In this document: in pieces, positions 1,721 through 24,401 of the stretch
Layout: each line of letters starts with the position of its first letter
Numbering within the stretch: position 1 is the first letter of the stretch
Notes under the pieces: generated by a model
What the model was told of the DNA's origin: nothing
The model's input: the letters and a program-made list of their open reading frames with translations, nothing else
Databases searched by the model: none
Made by a program: the position numbers and the translations under genes
IMG/VR virus record: IMGVR_UViG_3300003323_001383
Length of the DNA: 29,344 nucleotides
Strand: one strand, 5' to 3'
Source: a virus

Positions 1721-1956
1721 GACCCCGTAGCCTAGAGGAAAGGCACGGCCAAAAACGGAAGCCGCACTCGAAAGAGGGGCCGCTGGAGGGGGCGAGCACA
1801 AGACCGCACGGCGTCGCCGGGGCGGCCCTCTACTCGCCCTGACCTGGACCGAGGTTGCGGATGCACCGAATGGCACGGAGCTCCCGGGTCGCTAGGGAAG
1901 CGCGTTTCCTACATGGTCCTTTGCGGTCGACGCGGGTTCGAGTCCCGCCGGGGTCG
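1721..1956 (+). ncRNA. composite tRNA-like element: canonical tRNA 5' acceptor and D arm, an expanded anticodon region, a ~150-nt structured insertion, then a T arm and matching 3' acceptor
   Basis: 5' gaccccg-ta-gcct-agaggaa-aggc matches the 5' halves of other tRNAs here; the 3' end gcggg-ttcgagt-cccgc-cggggtc pairs 7/7 with the 5' acceptor; cggcc...ggccg could close a 29-nt anticodon loop; the insert has internal helices (gggcgag/ctcgccc). Confidence 0.4.
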
Positions 1957-1962
1957 CAGTCC

Positions 1963-2757: not shown

Positions 2758-2759
2758 CG

Positions 2760-2821
2760 AGGTCGCGCCCAGCGAAGGGCGGTCACACAAGCAAATGGAG
2801 GTTCGAGTCCTCCCGTCCCCA
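2760..2821 (+). pseudogene. orphan tRNA 3' half (insert-end motif, T arm, acceptor) with no adjacent 5' half
   Basis: gcccagcgaagggc hairpin, then gtcacacaagcaaatggaggttcgagtcctcc-cgtcccc-a, which aligns with the insert-end and T-arm segment of the interrupted tRNA at 11554-11682; the only upstream complement, ggggacg, is at 2526. Confidence 0.4.
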
Positions 2822-2843
2822 CGAGCCCGCGAGGGCCACCCAC

Positions 2844-2906
2844 GGGGATGTAGCCGAAATGGAATAGGCAACGATATTGAAAATCGTCAACATATCCCGA
2901 TCCCCA
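2844..2906 (+). pseudogene. AT-rich tRNA-Ser(TGA)-like fragment lacking a recognisable T arm
   Basis: ggggatg-ta-gcc-gaaatggaata-ggc-a-acgat-atTGAaa-atcgt, then caacatatccc and gatcccc-a; local GC far below the window average. Confidence 0.3.
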
Positions 2907-2927
2907 CATCGGGCGCGACCCAGCTCT

Positions 2928-3497
2928 TTAGAGGACGAAGTCCTCCGCCAGGGCCTCCCGCAGGCGCGAGATGGTCCGGGCGTGTATCTGCGAGATGCGG
3001 GGCTCGGACACGCCGAGCTCGGCCGCTATGGAGCGATAGTCCACGCCGTGGACGTGGTGGGAGACGAAGATGTGGCGCTCGCGCCACGGGAGGAGGTCGA
3101 CGAGTTCCCAGACCTTCGACAGGGCGAGGGCCGCCGCGGTCCTTGCCTCGACGTCGTCGCCCGACATTGCGTCCTCGAGCGACCTGTGCCCGGAGTCGAC
3201 GAGGACGTGGACCGCCCTGTCCGGGTCGCCCTTGGCCCTCATGCGGTGGTGCCTCGGCATCCAGTCCTTCGTCCGCAGGTCGTCCTTTATGGCGCCGCGG
3301 ATCCTTATCCTCGCGTAGGCCCCGAAGTTCTCGCAGTCGGGGTGGAGGCGCGCCGCGTCCCAGAGGCCGGACATCGCGGCCGCGTGGAGGTCGTCGTACA
3401 TGATGTGCGCCGGAAGGCGCCGCTTGAACCCGAGCGCGATGCTGCGGGCGAGGTGTGCGTGGTCCTTCATGAGGATCGAGACGCGATACTCGTTCAC
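2928..3497 (-). CDS. RNA polymerase sigma factor, FliA/WhiG (sigma-28) family
   Basis: region-2-like RLPAHIMYDDLHAAAMSGLWDAARLHP...YARIRIRGAIKDDLRTKDWMPR parallels the E. coli FliA region RLPASVDVDDL...ASWRIRGAMLDELRSRDWVPR; C-terminal region-4 HTH DYRSIAAELGVSEPRISQIHARTISRLRE. Confidence 0.85.
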   Translation of the reverse strand: MNEYRVSILMKDHAHLARSIALGFKRRLPAHIMYDDLHAAAMSGLWDAARLHPDCENFGAYARIRIRGAIKDDLRTKDWMPRHHRMRAKGDPDRAVHVLVDSGHRSLEDAMSGDDVEARTAAALALSKVWELVDLLPWRERHIFVSHHVHGVDYRSIAAELGVSEPRISQIHARTISRLREALAEDFVL

Positions 3498-4705: not shown

Positions 4706-6730
4706 ATGAACAACGAGAGCATGGGGGCGGCCGAGACCATCGTCCAGTCCCTTCTGTCCCACGCGGACCACATGTACCACAACCGTCCCGGCGTCGTCGT
4801 CGCGGACGCCCGCTTCAAGGTCGGGGTCCGTTGGGAGTACGTGACGCACCGCGAGAAGTGCCGGACCCACGAGGACGACCCGGTGAGGCCGGAGAAGGAC
4901 GCCGAGGGCAAGAAGACCGGCCGCCTGCTCTGCTCCAAGTGCCAGTCTGACGTCCGGGGGAACGGCCACAGGATCGTCTACCGGAAGGTCAAGGTCGGCA
5001 AGAAGGAGGAGGAGCAGAAGGTGGGCTACCTCGGCCCCGACGGGAAGGACGTCCTCGGCCCGAACGGGCAGAAGGTCGCCGAGTACCGCGAGGCCGGCGT
5101 CTTCCCCGAGATCGCCGTCTGGATGTACGAGCAGGTCGCGAAGGTCTGGGAGCTCGACAACGAGTTCGCCGCCCGCTGGGCGTCGCACGCGTTCGGCGAG
5201 GACCACAAGGACCGGGCCGTGATCATGGCGGCCTTCATGCTCGTCCAGTCCCGCAAGGGGGACCCCGTCCGCGAGGACGGCAAGGTCCTGTTCCACGACG
5301 ACGACTTCCGGGACGTCGGCGAGGCCATGGTCCTGCACCTGAAGGACAAGAGGAAGAAGGACGAGCGCGAGATCTCCCCGCGCATGCTCCTGCGCATTCA
5401 CGAGGTCCTGTCGCTCGACGGGATCGCGGCGGTCAACCGGCGCCTCGGCTTCGGGGTCTCCGCCCGCAGGCCGCCCTTGGGCCGCTGGGCGAAGGCCGTC
5501 GAGAAGTGGCTCCTCTACCGGGAGGAGAACCCGAAGATGCTGGAGGGCCTGGTCAAGTCCGGGCAGAAGTCGACCGTCGTCGAGCTCTGCAAGCGCGTCG
5601 GGTACAAGCCCGCCTCGCCCAGGTTCTTCGAGATCCTCGGCGTCCGGCAGAAGCAGGCGCCGGACGGCAGGCGCACGGTCGCCATCGGCCTCGACATCAG
5701 GTCCGGCGGCTCGTGGGAGGGCATGAGCGAGGAGCAGATCTGCGAGGCGATCGTCAGGGACAAGGTCGGCTACAAGCGGGTGGCCGGCATGGTCCCCAGG
5801 TCCGTCGGCGTCACCCGCGCCGTCATGGCCGCGACGATCGAGGCCGGGGGCGTCTCCGACAAGGAGATGATCATCCTCATGCCGACCCTCGAGGAGCTCG
5901 GGCTCCTGGACGTCCCCTCCGTCAAGGAGAGGATCGAGCGCGCCGTCAAGGGCGCGGACGACATGCGCGCCGCGAACGTCGCGGCCCGGATGCGCTCCCA
6001 GGAGGCGAAGGAGAAGCTCCAGGAGGCCTCGGACAACGCCCTGAAGAAGGCGGTCGAGGAGGTCATGAAGGACATGCGCGCGTACATCCTAGTCGACAAG
6101 TCGGGCTCCATGGAGGGCGCGATCGAGGCGGCGAAGGGATGCGTGACGAAGTTCCTCCAGGGCTTTCCGCCCGAGCGGGTCCACGTGGCGTACTTCGACG
6201 CCGTCGGCCGCGAGGTCAGGATCCCGCACCCGTCCGCGGCCGGGGTCGCCAAGGCCTTCTCCGGCATCACGGCCGGAGGCGGGACCAACTACGGCCAGGG
6301 CGTCCTCGCCCTGAGGGACCACGTCCCGAAGGACGAGGAGGACGTCGTCATGATCTTCATCGGCGACGAGGGCCACGGGATCGGCCGGCTCATCAGGCTC
6401 GGCGAGGGCGACCACCCGTCGTTCGCCGCCGACGTCCAGAGGTCCGGCCTGCGGCCGATGGCGTTCGGGCTCATCCCGATCGTCTCGAAGAACCCGCAGT
6501 TCCCGCGCGGCAACTCCGTCCGGAAGACGGCCGCCGAGCTCGGGATCCCCTGCTTCGAGATCGGCGAGGAGACCTTCGCCGACCCCTACGCCATCCCGAG
6601 GACGATCAGGAACATCATCGCGGCGACCCCGGTCACCGCGAGGGCGACGGCCGCCCCGGTCCGGCGGCAGACCCTGGTCGAGGTCATCATGAAGACCGAG
6701 CTCCTCCGGAAGCCCGCTTGGGCAGCCTGA
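4706..6730 (+). CDS. Ro60/TROVE-like protein with a C-terminal von Willebrand A (vWA) domain and an N-terminal Cys-rich extension
   Basis: AAGGAG RBS 10 nt upstream of the ATG; the C-terminal YILVDKSGSMEG (MIDAS DxSxS)...ITAGGGTNYG...VVMIFIGDEGHG...IPCFEIGEETF...IRNII parallels the human Ro60 vWA region VDVSASM...AGGTDCS...VFIVFTDNETF...CGFDTGALDVIRNF; the N-terminal 130 aa contain CSKCQSD...GHR. Confidence 0.65.
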   Translation: MNNESMGAAETIVQSLLSHADHMYHNRPGVVVADARFKVGVRWEYVTHREKCRTHEDDPVRPEKDAEGKKTGRLLCSKCQSDVRGNGHRIVYRKVKVGKKEEEQKVGYLGPDGKDVLGPNGQKVAEYREAGVFPEIAVWMYEQVAKVWELDNEFAARWASHAFGEDHKDRAVIMAAFMLVQSRKGDPVREDGKVLFHDDDFRDVGEAMVLHLKDKRKKDEREISPRMLLRIHEVLSLDGIAAVNRRLGFGVSARRPPLGRWAKAVEKWLLYREENPKMLEGLVKSGQKSTVVELCKRVGYKPASPRFFEILGVRQKQAPDGRRTVAIGLDIRSGGSWEGMSEEQICEAIVRDKVGYKRVAGMVPRSVGVTRAVMAATIEAGGVSDKEMIILMPTLEELGLLDVPSVKERIERAVKGADDMRAANVAARMRSQEAKEKLQEASDNALKKAVEEVMKDMRAYILVDKSGSMEGAIEAAKGCVTKFLQGFPPERVHVAYFDAVGREVRIPHPSAAGVAKAFSGITAGGGTNYGQGVLALRDHVPKDEEDVVMIFIGDEGHGIGRLIRLGEGDHPSFAADVQRSGLRPMAFGLIPIVSKNPQFPRGNSVRKTAAELGIPCFEIGEETFADPYAIPRTIRNIIAATPVTARATAAPVRRQTLVEVIMKTELLRKPAWAA

Positions 6731-6738
6731 GGCGCACG

Positions 6739-7095
6739 ATGTCGAGGAGGATGGGGCGGGAGCCCCTCCCCTCCCCGGTGTCGCACCGGTCCTACCTCGC
6801 CAGCCCGGCGTTCGGGCTGGCAAGGTCGGGCCGCAGCATCTTCTCGGTCCCGAAGAGGGGGCCGCTCTTCTACGCCGACTTCGAGGCGACGGAGCTCCGG
6901 ATGATGGCCTCCCTGGGCCTCTTCAGGTTCCCGTGCCCCGCCTGCGGAGACCCGCTCCTGGCGAGCGCCCGCTCCGGACGGAGGTCGATGGGGTACCCGC
7001 ACGACCTTGCCGGAAGCCAGGACGACATCCTCGTCCAGCACGCCCTGAAGAAGGGGGACCCCGAGCACGGCGTCCTCCTCGTCATGACGGCGTAG
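6739..7095 (+). CDS. hypothetical small protein with a CPACG motif
   Basis: ATG 9 nt after the previous stop; the same frame extends far upstream as a GC artefact, so support is weak. Confidence 0.3.
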   Translation: MSRRMGREPLPSPVSHRSYLASPAFGLARSGRSIFSVPKRGPLFYADFEATELRMMASLGLFRFPCPACGDPLLASARSGRRSMGYPHDLAGSQDDILVQHALKKGDPEHGVLLVMTA

Positions 7096-7146
7096 GGTTC
7101 CCCGTGCTGCCCGGCTTTCGAATACGTGGCCCCGGCCCCTGACCTC

Positions 7147-7220
7147 CCGCCGGTAGCTCAGCGGTCACGAGCACGCGCCTTATAAGCGTGGGGTCGGTGG
7201 TTCAACTCCACCCCGGCGGA
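7147..7220 (+). tRNA. tRNA-Ile(TAT), a rare UAU anticodon that decodes AUA
   Basis: acceptor ccgccgg/ccggcgg, D arm gctc-agcggtcac-gagc, anticodon arm cgcgc-ctTATaa-gcgtg, T arm ggtgg-ttcaact-ccacc. Confidence 0.7.
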
Positions 7221-7264
7221 CGAAGCAGGCGGAGATGGCGCGCCCTCGGGCGTAACGTCGTCCC

Positions 7265-7338
7265 GGGCCCATCGTCTAAGTGGTTAAGGCCCCCGGCTCA
7301 TAACCGGGTAATTCTCGGTTCGAACCCGAGTGGGCCCA
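7265..7338 (+). tRNA. tRNA-Met(CAT)
   Basis: acceptor gggccca/tgggccc, D arm gtct-aagtggtta-aggc, anticodon arm cccgg-ctCATaa-ccggg, T arm ctcgg-ttcgaac-ccgag. Confidence 0.85.
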
Positions 7339-7364
7339 CTCCCGGCGCGGCCGGGGAAGAAATC

Positions 7365-7658
7365 ATGACCAAAACAAAGCTAGTTCAGGCGCTCTCGGAA
7401 CAGAACGACATCACCCGGGCCCAGGCCAAGGGGATCCTCGACAGTCTCTACTCGATCGCGGAGAACGCGCTGAGGGAGGAGGGGTCGTTCACCCTCCCGG
7501 ACGTCGTGAAGCTGACCCTGAAGGACGTCCCGGCGCAGCCGGAGCGGCAGACGATCAACCCCTTTACCAAGCTTCCTCACACCTCGCCCCCGCGCCCGGC
7601 CTCGAAGAAGGTGAAGGCGTCGCCGGCGGCGACCATCAAGAAGGCGTTCCAGAAGTAG
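7365..7658 (+). CDS. HU/IHF-family nucleoid-associated DNA-binding protein
   Basis: MTKTKLVQALSEQNDITRAQAKGILDSLYSIAENALREEGSFTLPDV...NPFT matches the HU fold signature (MNKTELI..LSK.QAK.ALE.....I...L..G..V.L.GFG.F); ggggaag RBS. Confidence 0.8.
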   Translation: MTKTKLVQALSEQNDITRAQAKGILDSLYSIAENALREEGSFTLPDVVKLTLKDVPAQPERQTINPFTKLPHTSPPRPASKKVKASPAATIKKAFQK

Positions 7659-7661
7659 GGC

Positions 7662-8648
7662 ATGTCCTGGCGGGACCTGCTCCAGAAGGAGGACGAGAGC
7701 CTCGTCCTCCCGTGGACCGGAGGGAGGACCGTCCTCTCGCCGGGCCCCGCGTACCAGATGCAGGGTCCGAAGCCCAGGGAGCACGGGTGGAAGGCTTTCC
7801 AGATAAAGGGAAGGAACGCCTTCCACGTCGGCCCGTCGGACCCGGAGGTCTCCGTCCTCGGAAGGCGCGTCACCGGGTACCTCGTCGGGGACCGCGTGGT
7901 CCCCGACGGGACACGGGTGGCCTCCGGCTACGATGGGATAATCTACTCCTCGGAGGCGGTCCACCTCCTCGAGCCCGGGATCGCCAGGTTCGCCAGGGTG
8001 TCCGCCGGCCGCGTCGCCGACGGGGCGCCCCTGGTCTTCGTCTCGGAGGAGATGCCGCTCGGGCCCGAGCAGGACGTCCTCGCCGCGTTCCAGGACCGGG
8101 CCCCGAACCTGGACGGGATCCGCGACGTCGAGCCAGCGCTCTACGCGGCCTTCGTCCTGGAGGTCGGCCAGAGGGCGTCGGCGGAGAAGGCCAGGGCCGA
8201 GCTCGAGGCGCAGCGCGCCCTGGAGGCCGCCCAGGCGGCCGAGAGGGAGCGGATCGGGAGGCTCGTGGAGCAGCTCTCGGACGCGCGCGGGAGGCGCGAG
8301 ATGGCGGCCTACGACTTCGCCCAGGCCGCGTCGGCGGCGCTGACCCTGGCGGAGGCTGAGTACCTGGACCACCGGGCGTCCGCCAACCGAGGGGAGATGG
8401 TCGTTACCTTCCGCCTCGAGGGGCGGAGGTTCGAGTGCGTGTGCGACGCCAGGACACTCCGGATCGTCGACTCGGGCATCTGCCTCGTCGACCACAGGAC
8501 CGGGGTCCGCGGCGACGACCGTTTCACCCTCGAGTCGCTCCCCGGCGTCATCCGCCTGGCGATGAGGACCGGCAGGCTTCACGTCTTCCGCCGGGTCGAC
8601 GACGACTACGGCGAGCGGGAGCACGATGACGACGACTACGACGACTAG
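7662..8648 (+). CDS. hypothetical protein (328 aa) with an acidic DDDYDD C-terminus
   Basis: ATG 4 nt after the HU stop; coiled-coil-like Ala/Glu/Arg-rich middle. Confidence 0.6.
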   Translation: MSWRDLLQKEDESLVLPWTGGRTVLSPGPAYQMQGPKPREHGWKAFQIKGRNAFHVGPSDPEVSVLGRRVTGYLVGDRVVPDGTRVASGYDGIIYSSEAVHLLEPGIARFARVSAGRVADGAPLVFVSEEMPLGPEQDVLAAFQDRAPNLDGIRDVEPALYAAFVLEVGQRASAEKARAELEAQRALEAAQAAERERIGRLVEQLSDARGRREMAAYDFAQAASAALTLAEAEYLDHRASANRGEMVVTFRLEGRRFECVCDARTLRIVDSGICLVDHRTGVRGDDRFTLESLPGVIRLAMRTGRLHVFRRVDDDYGEREHDDDDYDD

Positions 8649-8649
8649 G

Positions 8650-9021
8650 ATGTCGAAGAAGACCTACAACGAGCGCCTGAGGGTCCTCATGGAGGTGACG
8701 GCCGCGAGGGCCGGGACGGCGGGTTTCAGCGTCGTGGTCCCGCACGCGAGCCCGAAGGAGGTCTGGCGGCTCGACGGGAAGGACATCCGGGACGTCAAGG
8801 CGAGCCTCTCCGGCATGGCCGAGCTCCAGTCCGACCAGGAGTGCGACGAGTGCCTCGAGCTCCTTCCGAGAGGGCACACGGTCGCCGGGAAGGTCATCCT
8901 CTGGGAGAGGGACGGGGGCATACTCCAGTCCCGGTTCCACTGCACCTGCATCCCCTGCTTCGTCCAGGACCGCGGGGGCTACCTGTCCTCAGCCGTCGTC
9001 GCGCTGGTCATGGAGACCTGA
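8650..9021 (+). CDS. hypothetical Cys-containing protein; C-terminus ...VALVMET
   Basis: ATG directly after the previous TAG; CDEC...HCTCIPC cysteines; ends gtcatggagacctga. Confidence 0.55.
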   Translation: MSKKTYNERLRVLMEVTAARAGTAGFSVVVPHASPKEVWRLDGKDIRDVKASLSGMAELQSDQECDECLELLPRGHTVAGKVILWERDGGILQSRFHCTCIPCFVQDRGGYLSSAVVALVMET

Positions 9022-9045
9022 CGCGGGCCGGCGTAACGTCCCCGC

Positions 9046-9390
9046 ATGGACAACGACGAGTGCCCGTCGCGGACGACCTACAACGAGCCGATCCGGCACG
9101 TCGGCAGAGCCAGGACGGCGACGAAGCTGGCGATTCTGGCCATCGCGGCCGCGGCCGTCCTGCTCGTGGTCTTCGCGGAGCGACAGCCGAACCCGAGGAA
9201 GGAGCACGACAAGTACGTCTCCGAGCGGCCGGCCTGGAAGGGCCGGGAGTGGAGGGAGACCGAGGCCGTCCTCTTCGAGGACCCGGGCCACCCCCTCACC
9301 TATCACGTCTGCACCTTCCGGGGGTGCGGGCACTACTTCGAGGACAAGACGGGGACCGACATGGCTCCGGGAAACGGGCAGAAGGAATGA
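9046..9390 (+). CDS. hypothetical membrane protein with one TM helix
   Basis: hydrophobic stretch LAILAIAAAAVLLVVF; its stop overlaps the next start (ATGA). Confidence 0.55.
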   Translation: MDNDECPSRTTYNEPIRHVGRARTATKLAILAIAAAAVLLVVFAERQPNPRKEHDKYVSERPAWKGREWRETEAVLFEDPGHPLTYHVCTFRGCGHYFEDKTGTDMAPGNGQKE

Positions 9391-9791
9391 GCATCGAGGA
9401 CGCGGCGGTCGTCGGCAAGGACGGGACCGTGGTCTACTGGCACTCCCCGGAGAACAGGTCGTACGGGTTCATCCCCGACTCCAGGAAGCTCTGGGACGTC
9501 ATATGGGAGGGGAGGGCCTCCATCGACGGGATCGCCCACACTCACCCGGGCAGGGGCTACCCGAACCCGTCGAAGACGGACCTGACGACCTTCGAGGCCG
9601 TCGAGAAGGGCATCGGGCGCCGCATCAAGTGGTGGATACTGAGCGCGGACTCCTCGGTCCTCCTCGAGTGGAGCGACGAGTTCTCCGGAGGGTACGACGT
9701 CACCAGCTACATGACCGTGGAGCGAGAGCCGGGGTGGATGGCGGCCCTCAGGGCCCGCTCTTTCCCGGAGCTCCAGGCCGCGCCCGCGTAG
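9387..9791 (+). CDS. JAB/MPN(+) JAMM-type metalloprotease-domain protein
   Basis: IAHTHPGRGYPNPSKTD fits the JAMM motif H-x-H-x(7-8)-S-x-x-D (compare RadC HNHPSGDPTPSQAD), with an upstream WEGRAS glutamate; ATGA overlap with the upstream gene. Confidence 0.6.
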   Translation: MSIEDAAVVGKDGTVVYWHSPENRSYGFIPDSRKLWDVIWEGRASIDGIAHTHPGRGYPNPSKTDLTTFEAVEKGIGRRIKWWILSADSSVLLEWSDEFSGGYDVTSYMTVEREPGWMAALRARSFPELQAAPA

Positions 9792-9799
9792 CGCGGCCC

Positions 9800-10522
9800 A
9801 TGTCGCTGGACTGCATCATATCCGTCACCCCGAAGGCCCGAGGGAGGGCCAGGAAGACCGTGAACGGGCCGGTCTCCCGCTTCATCCGGGACGACGAGGA
9901 CTACTACCAGGCCGTCCTCAAGCACCTCAAGGAGTGCAGGGTGTGCGACCCCGCGGAGGCCCTCCGGGGGTTCCTGAAGAACCGGCGGGCCGAGAAGTTC
10001 GGTGGCAGGGTCTCGGGCCTCCTCCTCAACATGGCGGCCAAGTACGTCAAGAACTTCCGCCACCGCGGCGAGGAGATCGACGCCCTCTACAGGGAATACC
10101 TCGTCGGGCATTTCTCCAGCTTCCACGACCTCGAGGAGGCCAGGGGTCTGACGGTCGAGGAGGTGCGCCGGGCCCACTCGATGTACATGACCCGGCACGA
10201 GCGGGAGGTCCGCCTCGCCCTCGAGTCGGAGGCCGGCCCGAAGGAGAAGAAAAAGCGCGCGGAGCCGCACCCGTTCGACGAGGCGCAGAGCCGCATGGGG
10301 TGGAAGGACGAGGTCTGGCCGAGGGAGGCCCTCGGCCGCATCGTCCCGGTCGATCTCCAGTTTTACGCCTCCCTCTCCGAGGAGGAGGCGGAGGACCTCG
10401 GCCCCTACCCCCTCGCCGTCTGGCTCGTCACCCGCCACAGCTGGGAGACGGCCATCCGGGAGGAGTCGGTCATCGCGGAGTACGCGAGGCTCCAGCTCGC
10501 GCAGAACGTCATGGACTCGTGA
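9800..10522 (+). CDS. hypothetical helical, charged protein (240 aa); C-terminus ...AQNVMDS
   Basis: lies between the JAB and E1-like genes; N-terminal Cys residues (DCIIS, ECRVCD); I see no E2 HPN motif. Confidence 0.55.
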   Translation: MSLDCIISVTPKARGRARKTVNGPVSRFIRDDEDYYQAVLKHLKECRVCDPAEALRGFLKNRRAEKFGGRVSGLLLNMAAKYVKNFRHRGEEIDALYREYLVGHFSSFHDLEEARGLTVEEVRRAHSMYMTRHEREVRLALESEAGPKEKKKRAEPHPFDEAQSRMGWKDEVWPREALGRIVPVDLQFYASLSEEEAEDLGPYPLAVWLVTRHSWETAIREESVIAEYARLQLAQNVMDS

Positions 10523-10559
10523 GGGTCCGAGTGTAGCGATAGTGGAAGGAGACACGAAA

Positions 10560-10847
10560 ATGGTAGACATCGTTCAAGTTGGAGGAGGGTTCGTCGGCCC
10601 GAACGAGGCGAAGGTGAACCTTTCCTGGGGAGGGCAGAACTACGACCTCTCCAACCCGGTCCCCCTGGACATCACGGACGCGGACCTCAAGGGCGTCCTA
10701 TCCGAGGTCATCCGCGCGGGCGGCGACGGCATCCCGGCGGACCAGGACGTGGGCCCGATGGCGAACTTCGTCGTCGAGCGGCTCGGCCCGACGGCGAGGC
10801 GCCCGCACAACCTCATCATGGTCCAGCCGAAGACCGAGTTCGGCTGA
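10560..10847 (+). CDS. small protein ending ...KTEFG; candidate beta-grasp / ubiquitin-like partner of the adjacent E1
   Basis: 95 aa; ggaaggagacacgaaaATG RBS; alternating beta/alpha-like pattern; terminal Gly just before the stop; sits immediately upstream of the E1-like gene. Confidence 0.45.
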   Translation: MVDIVQVGGGFVGPNEAKVNLSWGGQNYDLSNPVPLDITDADLKGVLSEVIRAGGDGIPADQDVGPMANFVVERLGPTARRPHNLIMVQPKTEFG

Positions 10848-10893
10848 GGAGGCCGGCCCCGGAGATCCCGGGGCCGAGCCCTTAGGGGTCAGG

Positions 10894-11466
10894 ATGAAGA
10901 AGGTCACGATCGTCGGCGCCGGGGCCCTGGGCTCTCACCTCGTCATGCTGCTTCGGAACCACGCCGACATGAAGGTCGTGGACTTCGACCGCATCGAGAC
11001 GAAGAACACGATGTCCCAGCTCCACGGCAAGAGCACGGTCGGGAAGAACAAGGCAAAGTCTCTCCAGCAGACGATGCTCTTCCTGTTCGGCACGAGGCTC
11101 GAGGCGGTCCCGCACCGGCTCGAGCCGTCGAACGTCAAGGAGCTCCTCGAGGGCTCGGACCTCGTGGTCGACTGCGTCGACGACGGGCCGACCCGGAGGG
11201 TCATCCAGGCGTTCTGCGTGGAGAGAGGGATTGCGTGCCTGCACGGGGCGCTCTCGGCCGCCGGGGCAGACTTCGGCCAGGCCCGGTGGACCGAGGAGTT
11301 CACAGCCCACGACCGGACGGAGGGCGCGCCGACCTGCGAGGACGGCGAGCATCTTCCGTACATCGCGAAGGCCTCGGCGCAGCTCGCCATCGCGGCGCAG
11401 GACTTCCTGCGCGACGGCTCCAAGCGCGGGTTCCTCGTGCAGCGGGGCCCGGTCAAGGAGATCTGA
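10894..11466 (+). CDS. minimal E1-like adenylyltransferase (ThiF/MoeB/UBA superfamily)
   Basis: VTIVGAGALGSHLVMLL...VVDFDRIETKNTMSQL nucleotide-binding motif, then DLVVDCVDDGPTRRVIQAFCVERGIACLHGALSAAGADFGQ; only 190 aa. Confidence 0.8.
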   Translation: MKKVTIVGAGALGSHLVMLLRNHADMKVVDFDRIETKNTMSQLHGKSTVGKNKAKSLQQTMLFLFGTRLEAVPHRLEPSNVKELLEGSDLVVDCVDDGPTRRVIQAFCVERGIACLHGALSAAGADFGQARWTEEFTAHDRTEGAPTCEDGEHLPYIAKASAQLAIAAQDFLRDGSKRGFLVQRGPVKEI

Positions 11467-11553
11467 GGATTGACGGCGGTACGTCCGCCGGTGTAAAGTA
11501 ACGACGTCAGCAGCGAGACGCCAAGCGTCTCCGGGACCAGAAGGTCCCTCTCG

Positions 11554-11682
11554 GGGTTCAAGGAGACTGGGTCTCCACCAATCGGTAAAATTGGCAAATC
11601 ACCCAGAGTCGGCAATCGGGCCAGCGATGGCCCTCCCGAACGGCTCTCACAAGCAAGCTAGGTTCGATTCCTAGGGACCCCA
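11554..11682 (+). tRNA. tRNA-Tyr(GTA)-like gene interrupted by a ~58-nt insertion between the anticodon stem and the T stem
   Basis: 5' ggggttc-aa-ggag-actgggt-ctcc-a-ccaat-cgGTAaa-attgg; 63 nt of insert (11595-11657) ending ggctctcacaagcaagc; then ctagg-ttcgatt-cctag-ggacccc-a, which pairs with the 5' acceptor (one G-U). Confidence 0.55.
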
Positions 11683-11717
11683 CACGCCGGGCCTTCCGGC
11701 GTAAGATCGCAGAGTTC

Positions 11718-11851
11718 GCCCCGTAAGAGGTCTGGGTACCTCATTTCCCTTCCACGGAAACACACAACACCCCAGGCTAGCCAATCGACCCCTCGCGGGG
11801 TCACCAGGCACAGTCTCACATGCATGGATGGTTCGATTCCATCACGGGGCT
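11718..11851 (+). tRNA. tRNA-Gly(TCC) interrupted by a ~61-nt insertion in the variable region, with an encoded CCA
   Basis: 5' gccccgt-aa-gagg-tctgggta-cctc-a-tttcc-ctTCCac-ggaaa; 66 nt (11761-11826) containing caatcgaccc and gtctcacatgc; then gatgg-ttcgatt-ccatc-acggggc-t-cca; acceptor 7/7 complementary across 134 nt. Confidence 0.7.
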
Positions 11852-11880
11852 CCAGAGGCGTTCAGCGCGGCAAAGCACAC

Positions 11881-11952
11881 ATGCAATTAGCTCAAAGGTA
11901 GAGCGTCGGCCTACTAAGCCGGATGTTGCGGCCTCGAAAACCGCATTGCAAT
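11881..11952 (+). pseudogene. degenerate, AT-rich tRNA-like sequence (anticodon ACT, non-canonical 9-nt T loop, encoded t-cca)
   Basis: atgcaat-ta-gctc-aaaggta-gagc-g-tcggc-ctACTaa-gccgg-atgtt-gcgg-cctcgaaaa-ccgc-attgcaa-t-cca; the first acceptor pair is mismatched. Confidence 0.35.
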
Positions 11953-11991
11953 CCAACCTCCCGCTTTCCGAATCGAACGTCTCGTAGTCTT

Positions 11992-12119
11992 GCCCGAAGT
12001 CGGGGTCTGGGACCCCACCAGTTTTTGGAACTGACAAACCCAGCGTCGCGCATCGACCCCCGTGAGAGGGTCAGCAAAGCGGCTCTCACAAGCTTCCGGT
12101 TCGAATCCGGATTCGGGCG
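11992..12119 (+). tRNA. tRNA-Gln(TTG) interrupted by a ~55-nt insertion in the variable region
   Basis: 5' gcccgaa-gt-(c)gggg-tctggga-cccc-a-ccagt-ttTTGga-actga; 60 nt (12035-12094) containing catcgaccccc and ggctctcacaagc; then tccgg-ttcgaat-ccgga-ttcgggc-g; acceptor 7/7. Confidence 0.55.
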
Positions 12120-12146
12120 CAAGGAAAGGCAGAGGTAACGTGAAGG

Positions 12147-12506
12147 ATGAACTCCTCCGTTGATCTGCCTCCGCAAGGCATCCTTCGGCTTCTCGAGGAC
12201 GCGAGGAAGGTGTCCGTGTGGCTCACCGACTGTCACTTCGAGCGAAGGCTCGGGGATCCCTCGGACGTCTCCTTGTTCGACCTCAGCTTCCTGAGAGGCG
12301 ACTTCGCCGAGAGGAACGGGGTCCGGGAGCTCCGCATCGAGGGAGTGACGGTGTGCCATCCGGTGACGAGGCAGGAGCTCGAGCCGTTCTTCGACGGCAG
12401 GGAGGTCGTGAACCTCGTCGGGTGCCGGCACTGCGGCCGTCCTTGCGACCCGGAGCACGGGATCTGCCCGGACTGGGCCGCCGCGGCGTGTGTTCTGTCC
12501 TCGTAG
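12147..12506 (+). CDS. hypothetical protein (119 aa) with a C-terminal CRHCGRPC...C cluster
   Basis: ATG preceded by gtgaagg; its last codons overlap the start of tRNA-Arg. Confidence 0.5.
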   Translation: MNSSVDLPPQGILRLLEDARKVSVWLTDCHFERRLGDPSDVSLFDLSFLRGDFAERNGVRELRIEGVTVCHPVTRQELEPFFDGREVVNLVGCRHCGRPCDPEHGICPDWAAAACVLSS

Positions 12507-13748: not shown

Positions 13749-14131
13749 CCTAGAGGCCCGCGCGCCTCCGCATCCGGCCCTCCCACTCTCGGCCGAGGCG
13801 CTGCCCGCGCTCCGAGACGGCCTTCCTCTCCCTCGGGTCGGCCACGTCCTTGCTCTTGCCGCGGCTCGAGATGCGCTCCACGGCGGTTATCCGGCCGCAC
13901 GCGACGTGGACGTGGAAGACCTCCGCGTCCTTGTTGAAGCCGTGCTCGTCGAGCTTCCGCGTCGCCGCGGAGACGTCCTTCCTGCTCTGGAACAGGACGC
14001 TCCCGCTGAGGAGGGAGGTGGAGCAGACGACGCGCCATCGGCCGATGTTCATCGGGGTTGCCATCCCGGGGCCTTACGCTCGGGGCCCGCGCACCTCCGT
14101 AGGTCCTTCCCGGACGGGCGTACGGTCCGGG

Positions 14132-14539
14132 ATGGCGAAGGTCCTGATAGTGGACGACTCCGCCCTGGTCCGGGTCCTGATGGCGGACTGGCTGCGGAGG
14201 GAGGGGCACGAGGCGGTCTCCATCGACTCGCCCGCGCTTCTGGGATCGACGATGATGAGGGAGCGCCCCGACATCGTCGTCATGGACGTCGACCTCGGAG
14301 GGGTCCGGGGAGACAGGATGACGGCCGTGGCCCGCGAGAGCGGGCTCATCGACTGTCCGGTGGTCCTCGCCTCGGCGAGGCGCGACTCGGACCTCGCGAT
14401 GCTCTGCGTCGAGTGCGGGGCCATCGGGTACGTGCAGAAGGGCGAGGACGGTCCCGCCTTCGTGCGCGCTCTCGAGTCGTACATGACGCGCCGTTCGCTC
14501 CTCCCGGCGTCGAGGAGGAGAGTGTCTTCGCGGGCGTAG
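14132..14539 (+). CDS. standalone response-regulator receiver (CheY-like REC) domain protein
   Basis: MAKVLIVDDSALVRVLMADWLRREGHE...PDIVVMDVDLGGVRGD carries the conserved acidic pocket and phospho-acceptor Asp; no output domain. Confidence 0.75.
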   Translation: MAKVLIVDDSALVRVLMADWLRREGHEAVSIDSPALLGSTMMRERPDIVVMDVDLGGVRGDRMTAVARESGLIDCPVVLASARRDSDLAMLCVECGAIGYVQKGEDGPAFVRALESYMTRRSLLPASRRRVSSRA

Positions 14540-15878: not shown

Positions 15879-16277
15879 ATGGACGCAGACTCCGAGCTCC
15901 AGAGGCACCACAAGGCATCGAGGGACGCCCTCGCGGTCGTCCGGGCCGTCCACGCGGCCCTCGACCGCCCGCTGTCCGGCGGGCCGTCGCGGGAGTCCAC
16001 GCAGGCCATCCTGGACGCCGCGCGGAGGGCCGTCCCGCGCCAGGCGGTCCCGCACCCGTGCACGGTCCGGTGCTGGCGCGTCGGCGCCCCGTCGGGCCTC
16101 GACGAGCGAGGGAGGTGCCTGGAGTGCGGGTCCCCCGGCGTCAGGAGCGACAAGGAGGAGTACGAGAGCCTCGTCTCCCCGGAGGTCGTGGCGAGGCTCT
16201 GCGAGCAGCTCATGCTCTTTCGGGACGCCGTGGAGCACCCGGCCGTCCTCGCCGCGGCGGCGGTCGGCGCCCTCTAG
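15879..16277 (+). CDS. hypothetical protein (132 aa) with a CxxC pair (CLECGSPG)
   Basis: ATG 3 nt after tRNA-Cys; its stop overlaps the stop of the convergent phosphatase gene. Confidence 0.5.
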   Translation: MDADSELQRHHKASRDALAVVRAVHAALDRPLSGGPSRESTQAILDAARRAVPRQAVPHPCTVRCWRVGAPSGLDERGRCLECGSPGVRSDKEEYESLVSPEVVARLCEQLMLFRDAVEHPAVLAAAAVGAL

Positions 16278-16930
16278 CGGGAGACGGCGTACGCGGCCCG
16301 GAGGCGCTTGTAGTCGTCGTTTGGCGCGCCGGCGGAGGTCGAGGAGTCGGCGACGGAGCAGGCCTCCGGGAACGGGACGCCCTTGTTCACGAGATAGCTC
16401 GTGTGAACGGCCCCGGTCCGGTCGGCCCCGAGGGTGCAGTGGACGAACACGGCCTTAGGGAGGCCGGACTGGTCCGCCATCACGGACGCCACCGTCTCGA
16501 CGAGGCCGGAGAGGTCCCAGCCCGGGGACGTCAGGTAGACCTTCGGGTCCTCGCCCTCGGCGAACCCCTCGATCGGCCACCAGTAGAACGTGGCGGGGAC
16601 GGACTTCCCCTCCGTCCTGAGGATGCACTGCTCCCCGTTCCTCGGGTCCCATCCGGGCTGGAGGTAGGGCGGCCAGTAGGAGGGAGAGGGGGCGCCGATG
16701 CCGAAGGCCGACATCTCCGGCCCGAGCATGTAGGCCTCCCCGACGCAGTCGATGAGGCTGAAGACGACCACCTCCCGCCCGGCGAGAGGGACGCCCGAGG
16801 CCGACTCGAGCTCGTCGAGGGCGAAGGAGTAAGGGTCCCCGACGAGAGGCATGCAGCTCCGGACCAGGGCGTTCCCGCCGACCGTGTCCACGTGCTTCAC
16901 GCGGTCGGGAAAGAAGACTTGTCTCGTCAT
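16274..16930 (-). CDS. Cys-based protein phosphatase (dual-specificity / PTP-like, CX5R)
   Basis: VHCTLGADRTGAV matches the HCxxGxxR(S/T) P-loop; start chosen at MTRQ. Confidence 0.7.
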   Translation of the reverse strand: MTRQVFFPDRVKHVDTVGGNALVRSCMPLVGDPYSFALDELESASGVPLAGREVVVFSLIDCVGEAYMLGPEMSAFGIGAPSPSYWPPYLQPGWDPRNGEQCILRTEGKSVPATFYWWPIEGFAEGEDPKVYLTSPGWDLSGLVETVASVMADQSGLPKAVFVHCTLGADRTGAVHTSYLVNKGVPFPEACSVADSSTSAGAPNDDYKRLRAAYAVSR

Positions 16931-16948
16931 GACGCCATCAGACAATAA

Positions 16949-17025
16949 AGCCCCCGTAGCCTAGCGGATCCAGGCGCTCGTTTTCTAAACGAGGTCACAC
17001 GCTGGTTCGAGTCCAGCCGGGGGCA
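16949..17025 (+). tRNA. tRNA-Arg(TCT)
   Basis: acceptor gcccccg/cgggggc, D arm gcct-agcggatcc-aggc, anticodon arm ctcgt-ttTCTaa-acgag, T arm gctgg-ttcgagt-ccagc. Confidence 0.85.
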
Positions 17026-17029
17026 CCAC

Positions 17030-17102
17030 GTCCCGTTCTTCTAGAGGCCCAGGAATCTGCCCTCTCAAGGCGGCAACGCGGGTTCGAATCCCGCACGGGA
17101 CG
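17030..17102 (+). tRNA. tRNA-Glu(CTC)
   Basis: acceptor gtcccgt/acgggac, anticodon arm ctgcc-ctCTCaa-ggcgg, T arm gcggg-ttcgaat-cccgc. Confidence 0.8.
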
Positions 17103-17108
17103 CCCCTT

Positions 17109-17182
17109 ACCGGGGGAGCCAGCTAGGCGACGGCGCCTCTCTTACAAGGAGGAGATGGCGGGTTCGAACCCCGCACCCGGTA
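17109..17182 (+). tRNA. tRNA-Val(TAC)
   Basis: acceptor accgggg/acccggt (one mismatch), D arm gcc-agctaggcgac-ggc, anticodon arm cctct-ctTACaa-ggagg, T arm gcggg-ttcgaac-cccgc. Confidence 0.7.
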
Positions 17183-17187
17183 CTCAC

Positions 17188-17259
17188 GTCCCCGTAGTCT
17201 AATGGACAGGCACATCGCTACGAACGATGTATATGCAGGTTCGAGTCCTGCCGGGGACG
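17188..17259 (+). tRNA. tRNA-Arg(ACG)
   Basis: acceptor gtccccg/cggggac, anticodon arm catcg-ctACGaa-cgatg, AT-rich variable loop tatat, T arm gcagg-ttcgagt-cctgc. Confidence 0.85.
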
Positions 17260-17275
17260 CTGTAACGTCAGACGG

Positions 17276-17512
17276 ATGACGAGAGAGGAAAGGGTCCGCG
17301 TCCTGCTCGGGGACGGCGGCTCCCGCTGCAACAAGATGCACCTGGCGGCCGGCTGGGGCTTCGAATGGAGATGGGAGGGAGAAGGGCCGGAGAAGAACGG
17401 GACGATGCGAAGCCGCATGCTGTTCCTCATCGACGGGGAGTGGAGGAGGGCCAAGAGCTGGGACGAGGACGTCCGGCCGCTCCTCAAGGACTTCAAGGCT
17501 CCCGTAGCCTAG
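17276..17512 (+). CDS. hypothetical small protein (78 aa); 3' end overlaps tRNA-Arg(CCG)
   Basis: ORF only; the 15-nt overlap with the tRNA makes the stop position doubtful. Confidence 0.3.
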   Translation: MTREERVRVLLGDGGSRCNKMHLAAGWGFEWRWEGEGPEKNGTMRSRMLFLIDGEWRRAKSWDEDVRPLLKDFKAPVA

Positions 17513-18080: not shown

Positions 18081-18287
18081 ATGCAGGAAAGAGGGCGGAC
18101 AGGATGCGGATGCATCCCGGGCGAGGTGTGCTGCGACGCGGCCACCGAAGCGTCGAGAAGGCTGAGGGACCTCCTCCCAGAGGCCCTGAAGAATGGGGAC
18201 TGGCGAGAGTTCGACCGGGTCCGTTCATGGCTCACTCAGCACCATTTCGGGTTCGTCAGGCTCACCGGGACCCACGGCCCCGGGTGA
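18081..18287 (+). CDS. hypothetical small protein (68 aa)
   Basis: ORF with an ATG start; no recognisable motif. Confidence 0.3.
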   Translation: MQERGRTGCGCIPGEVCCDAATEASRRLRDLLPEALKNGDWREFDRVRSWLTQHHFGFVRLTGTHGPG

Positions 18288-18328
18288 GGAGGCGAGGCCG
18301 ATAGACCCCATGTAAGGTCTCCGAGGAT

Positions 18329-18784
18329 ATGGCGGAGATCCGGAAAGCGTTGACGAAGAGGTACGTCGTGGATCCGAAGCTCCTCCCGGAGCTCGGGCCC
18401 GGCAGGACCGTGGTGACCGGCTACATGTCGGACGACCCGTCGGTCAGGCTCCGGGCGACCGACACAGGCGCCTGGATCCAGATATGGAGGCCGTCGGACG
18501 CCTCCCGATACTTCGAGTATCAGATACCCCTGGAGGAGGCCGAGTCCATGATGGAGCTCTGCTTCCGGCGCACCGCCAGGACGACCTGGGAGGTCAGGCA
18601 CGGCGGAATGACGTGGAGGGTGTGCGAGTACTCGGGGAGGCACGCCGGACTCTGGACCGCGTTCCTCGAGCTCGACACGAGGAGCACGGGCTACGAGGAG
18701 CCGCCGTGGGCCGTCAAGAACGTGAGCGGGGACCGTCGCTTCACGGACGAGGGGCTCTCGCGCCTGCAGAGGACGCCCTCCTGA
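18329..18784 (+). CDS. hypothetical protein (151 aa)
   Basis: ATG-initiated ORF with a balanced composition; the N-terminal AEIRKAL weakly resembles the CYTH EIERKF motif, so no family call is made. Confidence 0.5.
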   Translation: MAEIRKALTKRYVVDPKLLPELGPGRTVVTGYMSDDPSVRLRATDTGAWIQIWRPSDASRYFEYQIPLEEAESMMELCFRRTARTTWEVRHGGMTWRVCEYSGRHAGLWTAFLELDTRSTGYEEPPWAVKNVSGDRRFTDEGLSRLQRTPS

Positions 18785-19017
18785 GGCTCTGCGGGACCAA
18801 GGGCTGCGGCGCCGAGGCCGTGCGCTTCTTCCTCATGACGGGGGCGATCAAGGTCCTCGCGATGACGTGCGAGGACTGCGCCCGGTTCACGGGGCCCGAG
18901 TACACGCCGGTCACGGTCCTCGTGGAGGAGATCGGGGAGGGCGAGCTCGCCGTGCTCGAGGTCATGGAGATTGAGACGGTGCGAGGCTGGACGCCGGGGG
19001 CGCAGCCTCGCACCCGA

Positions 19018-21840: not shown

Positions 21841-22073
21841 TCCGGGTCGAACTCGAGATAGGAGTAGACCGCCACGGCCCCGTCGTCGTGCTTGACGAAG
21901 TACAGGTCGCCCCCGGCGCCGCCGACCGCATCGAGGACCTGGCCGGAGGCCCCGTTCTTCCGGGCGGCGACGAGGTCGGCCCCGCCGATCATGCCCATCG
22001 TGGCGTTCTTCTCGAAGCAGTCCACGGTCCGCACGCGGACGCCCCTCTTCAAGATTTGGCTCGGCTGCTCCAT
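21837..22073 (-). CDS. hypothetical small protein (78 aa)
   Basis: minus-strand ORF, Gly/Ala-rich; coupled to the previous gene. Confidence 0.4.
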   Translation of the reverse strand: MEQPSQILKRGVRVRTVDCFEKNATMGMIGGADLVAARKNGASGQVLDAVGGAGGDLYFVKHDDGAVAVYSYLEFDPE

Positions 22074-22149
22074 GCCGAGGAATACAACGACGTTAGCCCG
22101 ACTTTCGCGGAGGGAAAGTCAAGACAGTAACATAGACAGGCAGGAACCG

Positions 22150-23999: not shown

Positions 24000-24401
24000 T
24001 CAGTCGACGCGGACCTTCTTCGCGGCCTGAGGCTGGGCCGCCGGAATGACGATGGTCATATAGCCGTCCTCGACCTTCGCCGATATGGCGTCGAGGTCCG
24101 CCTTCTCGGAGATGGCGATCTTCACCGAGCTCTTCTGCCCGTCGAGCTTCCTCGTCCACTCGACCTGGAGGGACCTCGAGCTCACGGACACGTCGACGTC
24201 GCCCTTCTTGCACCCGGGCACCTCGAGCTCGACGGTGACGACCGGGAGGCCGTCGCGCTTCTCCTTCGTCACCTTGTGGGTCGAGTGCCCGAGGCGGACC
24301 GACGTCCCCTCGAGGGCGTCGTCGAAGATGGACTCGACGGTGTCCATGGCCTTGTCGAGGGCGTTCGAGATGCGGCGCACGTGCACGAAGAGGTCGTCCA
24401 T
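24000..24401 (-). CDS. small heat-shock protein (Hsp20 / alpha-crystallin domain)
   Basis: ...VELEVPGCKKGDVDVSVSSRSLQVEWTRK...AKVEDGYMTIVIP is a typical alpha-crystallin beta-sandwich signature. Confidence 0.8.
   Translation of the reverse strand: MDDLFVHVRRISNALDKAMDTVESIFDDALEGTSVRLGHSTHKVTKEKRDGLPVVTVELEVPGCKKGDVDVSVSSRSLQVEWTRKLDGQKSSVKIAISEKADLDAISAKVEDGYMTIVIPAAQPQAAKKVRVD

Follow-up and report, generated by a model that had tools for sequence, protein, structure and literature searches.

The bulge-helix-bulge (BHB) motif consists of two 3 nt bulges that flank a 4 bp helix at exon-intron boundaries. The archaeal and algal motif serves introns, pairings that flank tRNA ends, and permuted genes alike (compare PMC3978253, PMC4090602). 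Here we describe a conserved RNA module that occupies the same three kinds of position in a 29,344 nt stretch of bacteriophage DNA (IMG/VR virus record IMGVR_UViG_3300003323_001383, hereafter the window). In layout i the module lies inside a tRNA, after position 43; in layout ii it is assembled from the leader and the trailer of a tRNA; in layout iii it forms round a permuted tRNA gene. The three module-bearing (layout i) tRNA genes of the window are termed W1, W2 and W3, and phage loci with which the window was compared carry L numbers.

As in the BHB genes of Archaea and the red alga Cyanidioschyzon, one signal is found inside tRNAs away from the canonical 37/38 site, in permuted genes and in leader-trailer pairings, and the permuted genes of both systems place the 3′ half first, carry a short acceptor linker and have complementary outer tails. 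This likeness is an analogy of use, not homology. Unlike a BHB, the boundaries here are unpaired, A/C-rich strands (J0 on one side, YACAAGC and a linker on the other) that flank a 5-7 bp helix (P1) with no 3-4-3 arrangement. The element is also a two-helix module of about 55 nt with invariant nucleotides, found in a bacteriophage, and its excision is predicted. No EndA-type endonuclease, other splicing endonuclease or RNA ligase, RtcB-type or other, was found among the approximately 45 open reading frames (ORFs) of the window, compared with Pfam, or in the gene tables of L195-L198, the sets that the search covered.

Several other described elements resemble the module in part. Group I introns, which occur in bacterial and phage tRNA genes, are at least about 200 nt long, have a P1-P9 core and lie in the anticodon loop. 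The module likewise intervenes in bacterial-type tRNA genes, but its inserts measure 58-66 nt and follow position 43. Class II variable arms are single hairpins of 10-24 nt, confined in bacteria to tRNAs for Leu, Ser, Tyr (and Sec), while tRNASec and allo-tRNAs combine 8/5 or 9/4 (8/4, 9/3) acceptor/T helices with a 6 bp D stem and a long variable arm. With all of these, and with aptamer-tagged tRNAs, the module shares its place as a structured element between the anticodon and T arms, and with tRNASec and allo-tRNAs the module tRNAs share compact D arms (5-6 bp, short loops). Unlike long variable arms, however, it spans 60-66 nt, has two helices and conserved junction strands, and is also found outside the tRNA body. 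Module tRNAs keep a 7/5 acceptor/T arrangement, unlike tRNASec and allo-tRNAs, and the compact D arm is only a partial likeness.

Two-piece permuted tmRNAs (transfer-messenger RNAs) of alpha-proteobacteria, cyanobacteria and some phages work as two base-paired pieces; they encode a tag reading frame, contain pseudoknots and have a tRNA-like domain that lacks an anticodon arm. The layout iii unit of the window (2761-2920) is also a permuted tRNA-like gene, and Rfam permuted tmRNA models match it weakly at 2797-2852 (16-18 bits; gathering scores 47-70). Unlike tmRNA it possesses complete D and anticodon arms and lacks both a tag reading frame and pseudoknots, and ARAGORN reports no tmRNA in the window. 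YrlA Y RNAs join a Ro-binding helix to a tRNA-like domain without an anticodon arm and have a Ro gene (TROVE plus vWA) nearby. Finally, theta ribozymes, which are of the hepatitis delta virus (HDV)-like type, and permuted hammerhead and twister ribozymes resemble the module as small RNAs abutting phage tRNA ends, with a junction core and permuted topologies, but theta ribozymes occur only 3′ of tRNAs, whereas the module spans the two tRNA ends or lies within the tRNA.

Rfam searches of positions 11480-12180 at E ≤ 10 returned no ribozyme, intron, riboswitch or Y RNA family, and no core match to hammerhead, twister, twister-sister, pistol, hatchet, hairpin or HDV-like ribozymes. An earlier note, made from the sequence alone, had argued that the window inserts are neither 37/38 introns nor group I introns nor class II variable arms. 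All three statements hold, given the position of the inserts after position 43, their length and the lack of an Rfam Intron_gpI match at E ≤ 10, and the two helices of 60-66 nt on many tRNA identities. The BHB-like or self-cleaving fold considered in the same note was not found; the junctions have no BHB geometry and no Rfam ribozyme matched. Among the known families tested, permuted gene order is the only defining feature present. None of these families fits the module.

The note had placed three consecutive tRNA genes with related inserts at 11554-12119. Arm-by-arm reading bears out three genes, each with a related insert before the T stem (Table 1). The separation of positions 43 and 49, given as 60-66 nt, is 63 nt in W1, 66 nt in W2 and 60 nt in W3. 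The end of the interval (12119) was correct, and its start is 11553 rather than 11554. The genes are not strictly consecutive, as a fourth, module-wrapped tRNA (11881-11952) sits between W2 and W3. Pairing of the acceptor strands across the insert is perfect, not only in W2 and W3, as claimed, but also in W1. The arms had been called normal, which is true of the acceptor and T arms but not of the W1 anticodon loop, which has G33, or of the D arms, which are compact and non-canonical.

These genes escape standard searches. ARAGORN reports 34 tRNA genes, nearly all on the plus strand, in this high-GC, tRNA-rich window, yet none within 11554-12119, and the Rfam tRNA model misses W1-W3, finding only the 72 nt tRNA at 11881-11952 in that interval. 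A permissive Rfam search returned W3 (11992-12118) as a sub-threshold tRNA-Sec match (23.3 bits; gathering score 47). When the inserts were removed in silico, ARAGORN called all three genes, as Tyr(gta), Gly(tcc) and Gln(ttg). The minimum free energy (MFE) structure of W1 computed with RNAfold is a cloverleaf with one extra two-helix arm (z = -3.2).

Alignment of 17 copies yielded the consensus J0(...CC)-P1-J12(...YUCG)-P2-J21-P1′-YACAAGC, followed by 1-5 nt and the T stem. The module is approximately 55-65 nt long, with inserts of up to 66 nt. J0 is an A/C-rich strand of 8-17 nt ending in CC, P1 has 5-7 bp, J12 ends in YUCG, P2 is a variable hairpin that is often capped by a GNRA loop, and J21 comprises 5-12 unconserved nucleotides. 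The near-invariant single strands are the CC 5′ of P1, the YUCG 5′ of P2 and the YACAAGC 3′ of P1, and the first P1 pair flips in concert from A-U to G-C (CCA..UCACAAGC versus CCG..CCACAAGC). The sequence CAATCG(G/A)CCC, which had been taken for a central hairpin, is actually junction J12 (ending AUCG or CUCG) with the start of P2.

A covariance model built on the 17 copies was searched in the window and the phage loci, an extension to related phages that the earlier note had envisaged, and found about 48 full-length copies scoring 37-75 bits, with up to 6-8 per locus. Among 49 sequences, 90.2% of the cells were paired and 13 of the 14 pairs showed double-sided changes. The covariation score was 0.684, compared with 0.245 in shuffles (0 of 500 reached the observed value) and at most 0.18 in slid registers, which confirms the conserved blocks and compensatory helix changes that the note had described. 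G·U pairs occur on the tRNA-sense strand only, and copies from dozens of contigs and various samples keep the structure despite a divergence of 40-60%. The relatedness of the inserts thus exceeds chance by far: all are copies of a single conserved, folded RNA module.

This module is restricted to tRNAs. No free-standing copy was found in 223 kb, where all 45 matches to a module-only model proved to be tRNA-embedded copies, and the tRNAs concerned include those for Gly, Gln, Glu, Met, Phe, Val, Asn and others. An exact-pattern scan of viral contigs (CTCACAWGC..GGTTCGA) gave 74 stretches, about 25 of which have the same architecture and lie in tRNA-rich parts of phage contigs of 100-620 kb. A blastn search of positions 11400-12300 against 50,697 phage records gave no match. 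A scan of the genomes of 185,579 species gave at least 120 stretches; among those listed, true matches, supported by the covariance model, lie only on two contigs binned into metagenome-assembled genomes (L105 and L118).

Some copies carry additional small elements. A module tRNA of L198 (14215-14355) has an extra GNRA-capped hairpin (UGCC GCAA GGCA) between YACAAGC and the T stem, and in many others a mini-hairpin, such as AGC GAAA GCU or CGU GUAA ACG, separates the anticodon stem from J0. Two further candidate features were dropped. Each of the three window copies shows a possible pairing of a D-loop CUGGG with the module CCCAG, and the W2 RNAfold MFE structure includes it, but it is not conserved in other phages. 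Some copies have GAUCACACCUC in J12, which might mimic the anti-Shine-Dalgarno sequence, but the window copies lack it.

The earlier note missed two of the three layouts, and these are the strongest clue to what the module does. In layout ii, the tRNA at 11881-11952 (Rfam tRNA model, 50.4 bits; anticodon loop CUACUAA, with anticodon ACU according to the Rfam alignment) is of ordinary order, and its leader and trailer pair to form the module round it. The helices were found by search, and the RNAfold MFE structure recovers the wrap-round fold both here and in L195; homologous units are present in L195 and L198. Among 207 ARAGORN tRNAs from 23 sources, 12 carry YACANG[CT] across the 5′ end, and nucleotide +1 is always letter 5 or 6 of this heptamer. 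In 9 of the 12 heptamer tRNAs the longest leader-trailer helix begins directly after CUC or AUC, compared with 8 of 194 others (Fisher p = 3e-9). Both P1 and P2 of layout ii covary between loci (for example AGCCC/GGGCU, AGUCU/AGACU and GCUUU/AAAGC). Pairing of a unit's trailer with the leader of the next unit, to form a spacer hairpin, was excluded in the window and in L195, where there is no such neighbour. The tRNA at 11881-11952 has an A1·A72 mismatch, a C·A mismatch in the T stem, a T loop reading CUCGAAA and a GC content of 0.51, far below that of its neighbours. In its L195 and L198 counterparts, too, the 1-72 pair is mismatched and the T loop is odd.

Layout iii accounts for a further copy that the earlier note had placed at 2760-2821. 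That segment holds the 3′ half of a tRNA gene in circularly permuted order (2761-2920). Its acceptor strands (2844-2850 and 2814-2820) pair 7/7, and positions 2911-2920, directly after ..AUC, form a perfect 10 bp complement of 2761-2770. The MFE fold of 2761-2920 is exactly this permuted architecture (z = -3.0). Ten more genes likewise have the 3′ half first, a short acceptor linker and complementary outer ends, and all 11 distinct permuted genes form a tail-leader helix of 8-12 bp at the exact start of P2, directly after ..CUC or ..AUC.

Layout ii and iii units are packed flush against their neighbours. Their leader P2 strand starts precisely 3 nt past N73 of the tRNA upstream of it. Within the window, the layout ii unit follows the UCCA of W2 and the layout iii unit follows the ACGA of a tRNA-Val. 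Such flush packing into the tRNA array (window 2758-2761 and 11851-11855) is also seen in L002, L035, L039, L195 and L198, and the flush start is the position after the CCA-equivalent triplet.

Across a clade of huge phages, the module always sits where two tRNA backbone ends meet, that is, between positions 43 and 49, between positions 73 and 1, or at the outer ends of a permuted gene. In layout ii it cannot stay on a functional tRNA, and hence is transient at any rate in that layout. Given that the wrapped-round copies have to be removed, a maturation signal specific to precursors is the reading that most simply covers all layouts. We favour, with a probability of roughly 0.4, the view that the module is a tRNA-linked maturation signal that is cut out, with the internal copies acting as introns. 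Such a cis-acting signal would be read on the precursor by one dedicated factor, probably encoded by the phage, and then removed. Removal would free the tRNA ends in layout ii. In layout i, cuts would fall right after the anticodon stem (position 43) and inside YACA/(A)GC, where the slash marks the cut, and joining of the halves would leave GC plus about 3 nt as a variable loop of normal length. The same cut and joining in layout iii would give a circular intermediate, to be opened by RNase P and 3′ trimming. In 20 of 32 copies the GC and linker before the T stem together span 5 nt, and in a further 8 they span 6 nt. J0 adjoins the anticodon stem, and J0 and the layout ii trailers have the consensus CAAA(U/A)C..CC in common.

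Several observations weigh against excision. The module junctions form no BHB, no splicing endonuclease or RNA ligase gene was found in the sets named above, and we know of none in bacteria or phages that acts on a motif of this kind. The linker that follows YACAAGC is not of fixed length (1-5 nt), and extra hairpins can stand before J0 or after YACAAGC. Since P2 ends flush with the neighbouring tRNAs, RNase P and 3′ processing could suffice with no ligation. The core of the internal-module tRNAs (U8, A14, D arm) is non-canonical, and this peculiarity would outlast splicing. Retention is also feasible, as engineered tRNAs with aptamer hairpins in the variable arm are translationally active (PMC7590224).

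The bodies of the module tRNAs bear on this question. U8 is present in 27% of internal-module tRNAs and A14 in 20%, compared with 84% and 82% of ordinary tRNAs from the same loci. Their D stems average 5.3 bp and their D loops 4.8 nt, versus 4.3 bp and 7.5 nt in the ordinary set, whereas the permuted copies have canonical D arms. The internal-module tRNAs are a lineage of their own, and their compact D-arm geometry is familiar from tRNAs that retain a long extra arm, namely tRNASec and allo-tRNA. T loops are canonical, the acceptor/T arrangement is 7/5 and C74 is always present. CCA is encoded in about 13 of 45 module tRNAs, and U73 is found in 7 of 7 Gly(UCC) copies. Judged by these features, the tRNA bodies look functional.

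Anticodon loops are more varied. The loop CGGUAAA, with G33 before GUA, occurs in W1, L058, L072, L039 and L105, at about five to six loci in all, and at least 7 of 45 module tRNAs have 8 nt anticodon loops (for example CAUGUAAA). A related loop, CGGUUAA (G33 before GUU), was seen at one locus, and other module tRNAs have C33 or A33. Loci with odd anticodon loops are the window (11583-11589), L058, L072, L039, L105, L198, L049, L065, L035, L008 and L031. The irregularities cluster on GUN anticodons, and the loops of the Gly and Gln tRNAs are canonical.

The earlier note had offered two alternatives, a family of non-canonical introns or a structured module grafted onto tRNAs, and both survive the analysis. 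The main rival to our reading, which we consider a real possibility although not the outcome we expect, is that the module is kept as a structured fifth arm that replaces canonical contacts of the tRNA core and serves as a handle for a protein (for example a synthetase, modification enzyme or protective factor). On this view the product of a permuted gene would be a tRNA in two pieces, joined through P1, P2 and the acceptor stem and matured by RNase P and 3′ processing alone, and in layout ii the handle would be present on the precursor only. The D arms that resemble those of tRNASec and allo-tRNA, the loss of U8 and A14 specific to internal-module tRNAs, the weak tRNA-Sec match of W3 and the A/C-rich junction strands beside GC-only D stems all fit a retained arm. 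So do the longer split P2 (8-12 bp) with flush ends, which call for no special nuclease or ligase, and the lack of a nearby gene for either. Bacteria offer a precedent in two-piece permuted tmRNA. Three of the four window copies repeat the anticodon of an ordinary window tRNA (W2, Gly UCC at 13678; W3, Gln UUG at 19018; the permuted gene, Ser UGA at 23309), suggesting a specialised role; ARAGORN found no ordinary Tyr tRNA in the window. Finally, aptamer-tagged variable arms work in Escherichia coli (PMC7590224).

Against retention, the very same module, invariant nucleotides included, is wrapped round ordinary tRNAs, where removal is needed, and the layout ii heptamer stands in fixed register with tRNA +1. 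The GC plus 3 nt linker fits a class I variable loop, and the canonical D arms of the permuted copies do not share the peculiarities of the internal ones. No natural elongator tRNA is known to carry a two-helix arm of about 60 nt, and on the ribosome such an arm might cause clashes.

It is improbable that the module is itself a small self-cleaving or self-splicing ribozyme, with CC, YUCG and YACAAGC as its catalytic core and the layouts as circular permutations, whose cleavage frees tRNA ends or makes ends for RtcB-type ligation. About 15-18 invariant junction nucleotides among variable helices and loops form a pattern typical of small ribozymes, permuted topologies occur in hammerhead and twister ribozymes, in layout ii the heptamer runs across the 5′ end of the tRNA, and tRNA-associated theta ribozymes exist in phages. 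Yet no Rfam ribozyme family matches at E ≤ 10, and J21 is unconserved. By inspection, the order of the module strands is incompatible with the HDV-like double pseudoknot, and that fold was rejected. In layout i a single cleavage would break the tRNA, and two precise cleavages by a 55 nt RNA are without known precedent.

Nor do we give much credence to the idea that the helices are generic processing stems for host RNase III or RNase E, punctuating the tRNA array, the internal copies being non-functional by-products or non-decoding, tRNA-like decoys. The order of P1, internal loop and P2 resembles phage RNase III sites, and the frequency of odd anticodon loops and the duplication of ordinary tRNAs by three of the four window copies would agree with decoys. 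RNase III, however, does not read sequence-specific invariant single strands, distant phages share the odd loops, U73 goes with the Gly anticodon in 7 of 7 cases, and the genes keep their anticodon arms, T loops and 3′ ends. Pseudogenes created by a miniature mobile element, or assembly artefacts, might explain why tRNA finders make no call and why one genome has several related inserts, but this explanation is effectively refuted by the compensatory covariation with its sense-strand-only G·U pairs, along with the structure kept at 40-60% divergence, the perfect acceptor pairing across the insert and the matching helices of the permuted and wrap-round forms.

In the full-text literature, in which not every journal is covered, we found no account of permuted or split phage tRNAs or of variable-region modules. 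The tRNA sets of huge phages are under-counted, as up to 6-8 such genes per locus are missed by ARAGORN and the Rfam tRNA model. Disrupted tRNA genes had been regarded as limited to Archaea and a few eukaryotes. Excision, if true, would represent a new phage pathway of tRNA splicing and permutation with its own RNA signal. Retention would instead provide the first natural five-arm and two-piece elongator tRNAs, and a natural version of aptamer-tagged orthogonal tRNAs. Either way, this compact and well-defined RNA lends itself to experiments.

Table 1. Positions of module-bearing tRNA genes and other features in the window
Feature	Position	Strand	Details
W1	11553-11682	+	Tyr-like GUA; covariance model 70.9 bits; acceptor GGGGUUC/GGACCCC, 7/7 with one G·U; D arm present; anticodon arm CCAAU-CGGUAAA-AUUGG; T arm 11658-11674; acceptor 3′ strand 11675-11681; N73 is A
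W1 module	11595-11654	+	J0 11595-11603; P1 5′ strand 11604-11610; J12 GGCAAUC 11611-11617; P2 hairpin 11618-11633; J21 11634-11641; P1 3′ strand 11642-11647; CACAAGC 11648-11654
W2	11718-11851	+	tRNA-Gly(UCC); covariance model 65.3 bits; acceptor GCCCCGU/ACGGGGC, 7/7; anticodon loop CUUCCAC; T arm 11827-11843; U73; encoded CCA 11852-11854
W2 module	11761-11823	+	J0 11761-11773; P1 AGGCU 11774-11778; J12 AGCCAAUC 11779-11786; P2 hairpin 11787-11802; J21 11803-11811; P1′ AGUCU 11812-11816; CACAUGC 11817-11823
Layout ii unit	11855-11983	+	Ordinary-order tRNA 11881-11952; module from leader and trailer
Layout ii leader, P2 to P1 strands	11855-11876	+	P2 3′ strand GAGGCGUUC 11855-11863; J21 11864-11871; P1 3′ strand AAAGC 11872-11876
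Layout ii heptamer	11878-11884	+	CACAUGC; tRNA +1 inside heptamer
Layout ii trailer	11953-11983	+	J0 11953-11962; P1 5′ strand GCUUU 11963-11967; J12 CCGAAUC 11968-11974; P2 5′ strand GAACGUCUC 11975-11983
W3	11992-12119	+	tRNA-Gln(UUG); G73; covariance model 56.7 bits; acceptor GCCCGAA/UUCGGGC, 7/7; anticodon loop UUUUGGA; T arm 12095-12111
W3 module	12035-12093	+	J0 12035-12041; P1 5′ strand 12042-12047; J12 GCGCAUC 12048-12054; P2 hairpin 12055-12072; J21 12073-12078; P1 3′ strand 12079-12086; CACAAGC 12087-12093
Layout iii unit	2761-2920	+	Circularly permuted tRNA gene; anticodon loop AUUGAAA
Layout iii, 3′ half (first)	2761-2820	+	P2 3′ strand GGUCGCGCCC 2761-2770; J21; P1 3′ strand 2781-2785; CACAAGC 2786-2792; T arm 2797-2813; acceptor 3′ strand CGUCCCC 2814-2820
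Layout iii, linker	2821-2843	+	23 nt, with hairpin
Layout iii, 5′ half	2844-2887	+	Acceptor 5′ strand GGGGAUG 2844-2850; D arm 2853-2869; anticodon arm 2871-2887
Layout iii, tail	2888-2920	+	J0 2888-2898; P1 5′ strand 2899-2902; J12 CCCACAUC 2903-2910; P2 5′ strand GGGCGCGACC 2911-2920
Terminator-like hairpin	2931-2945		3′ of the layout iii unit
Conserved five-gene cluster	4706-11466	+	Immediately upstream of the module tRNAs
Gene A	4706-6730	+	674 aa; C-terminal vWA
Gene B	7662-8648	+	328 aa; OB folds and coiled coil; no family
Gene C	~9384-9788	+	JAB/JAMM; motif HTHPx8SxxD
Gene D	10542-10847	+	Ubl-like; ends ..PKTPFG
Gene E	10894-11466	+	ThiF/MoeB/UbaA-type E1-like adenylyltransferase
Sigma-70-family factor	2928-3497	-	
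HU-like DNA-binding protein	7188-7658	+	
Response-regulator receiver domain protein	13850-14539	+	
Dual-specificity-phosphatase-like (DSP-type) protein	16274-16945	-	
HNH endonuclease	21892-22668	+	
Hsp20	24000-24401	-	
NUDIX hydrolase	26725-27132	+	

The module tRNAs lie in synteny with the cluster of genes A-E, which they invariably follow directly. The same cluster precedes module tRNAs in L002, L008, L026, L031, L058, L065, L068, L072 and L195-L198, and the MAG-binned contig L105 (MAG, metagenome-assembled genome) encodes homologs of phage proteins A and B both. In a reverse test, four contigs picked solely by homologs of protein B (L195-L198) all carried module tRNAs (55-66 bits), 80-210 nt 3′ of the ThiF-like gene. 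One of them, L195, from a contig of 436 kb, has module tRNAs although ARAGORN finds no tRNA in 21 kb. The reverse test and L195 together indicate that the module is associated with the operon and not merely with tRNA-rich regions. The association is one of synteny, which may be functional or merely inherited.

Judged by its predicted products, the cluster looks like a ubiquitin-like conjugation or sulfur-carrier system. Gene D proteins are about 90 aa long and end in RPKTPFG plus 0-2 residues. A resemblance of protein A to Ro60 was examined, and vWA was the sole domain found. Nothing in operon A-E resembles a known RNA nuclease or ligase. We tentatively consider, as an idea less likely to be right than wrong, that huge phages own a tRNA disruption and maturation system, BHB-analogous but with an unrelated signal, that serves introns, the re-joining of permuted genes and the release of tRNAs. 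Such a system may be run or controlled by the adjacent vWA/OB-fold/JAB/Ubl/E1-like operon. If it exists, it would be the first protein- or ribozyme-dependent tRNA splicing other than by group I introns in the bacterial and viral world, with the first permuted tRNA genes there. Through its tight synteny, the module suggests an unexplored connection of a ubiquitin-like/E1/JAB operon with the tRNA biology of phages.

A possible larger relative of the module tRNAs lies at window positions 1721-1957 (+). It has acceptor strands GACCCCG/CGGGGUC (7/7), a D arm and a T arm (1932-1948), with about 150 nt between the arms that include CACUCG and GCACAAGAC, and it overlaps the start of a minus-strand ORF; its fold is no better than those of shuffled sequences (z = 0.18). 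The sole minus-strand call of ARAGORN, an 86 nt "tRNA-Gly(tcc)" at 6959-7044, lacks Rfam support and is probably a false positive. Most of the remaining window ORFs belong to no family; the contig of the window measures 95.6 kb in the public collection. A DSP-like gene is conserved near the tRNA region in the window and in L195; the L195 genes concerned, which include a metallophosphoesterase, lie at 16927-17502 (-) and 18084-18887 (-). Enzymes with DSP and metallophosphoesterase folds heal RNA ends in some repair systems.

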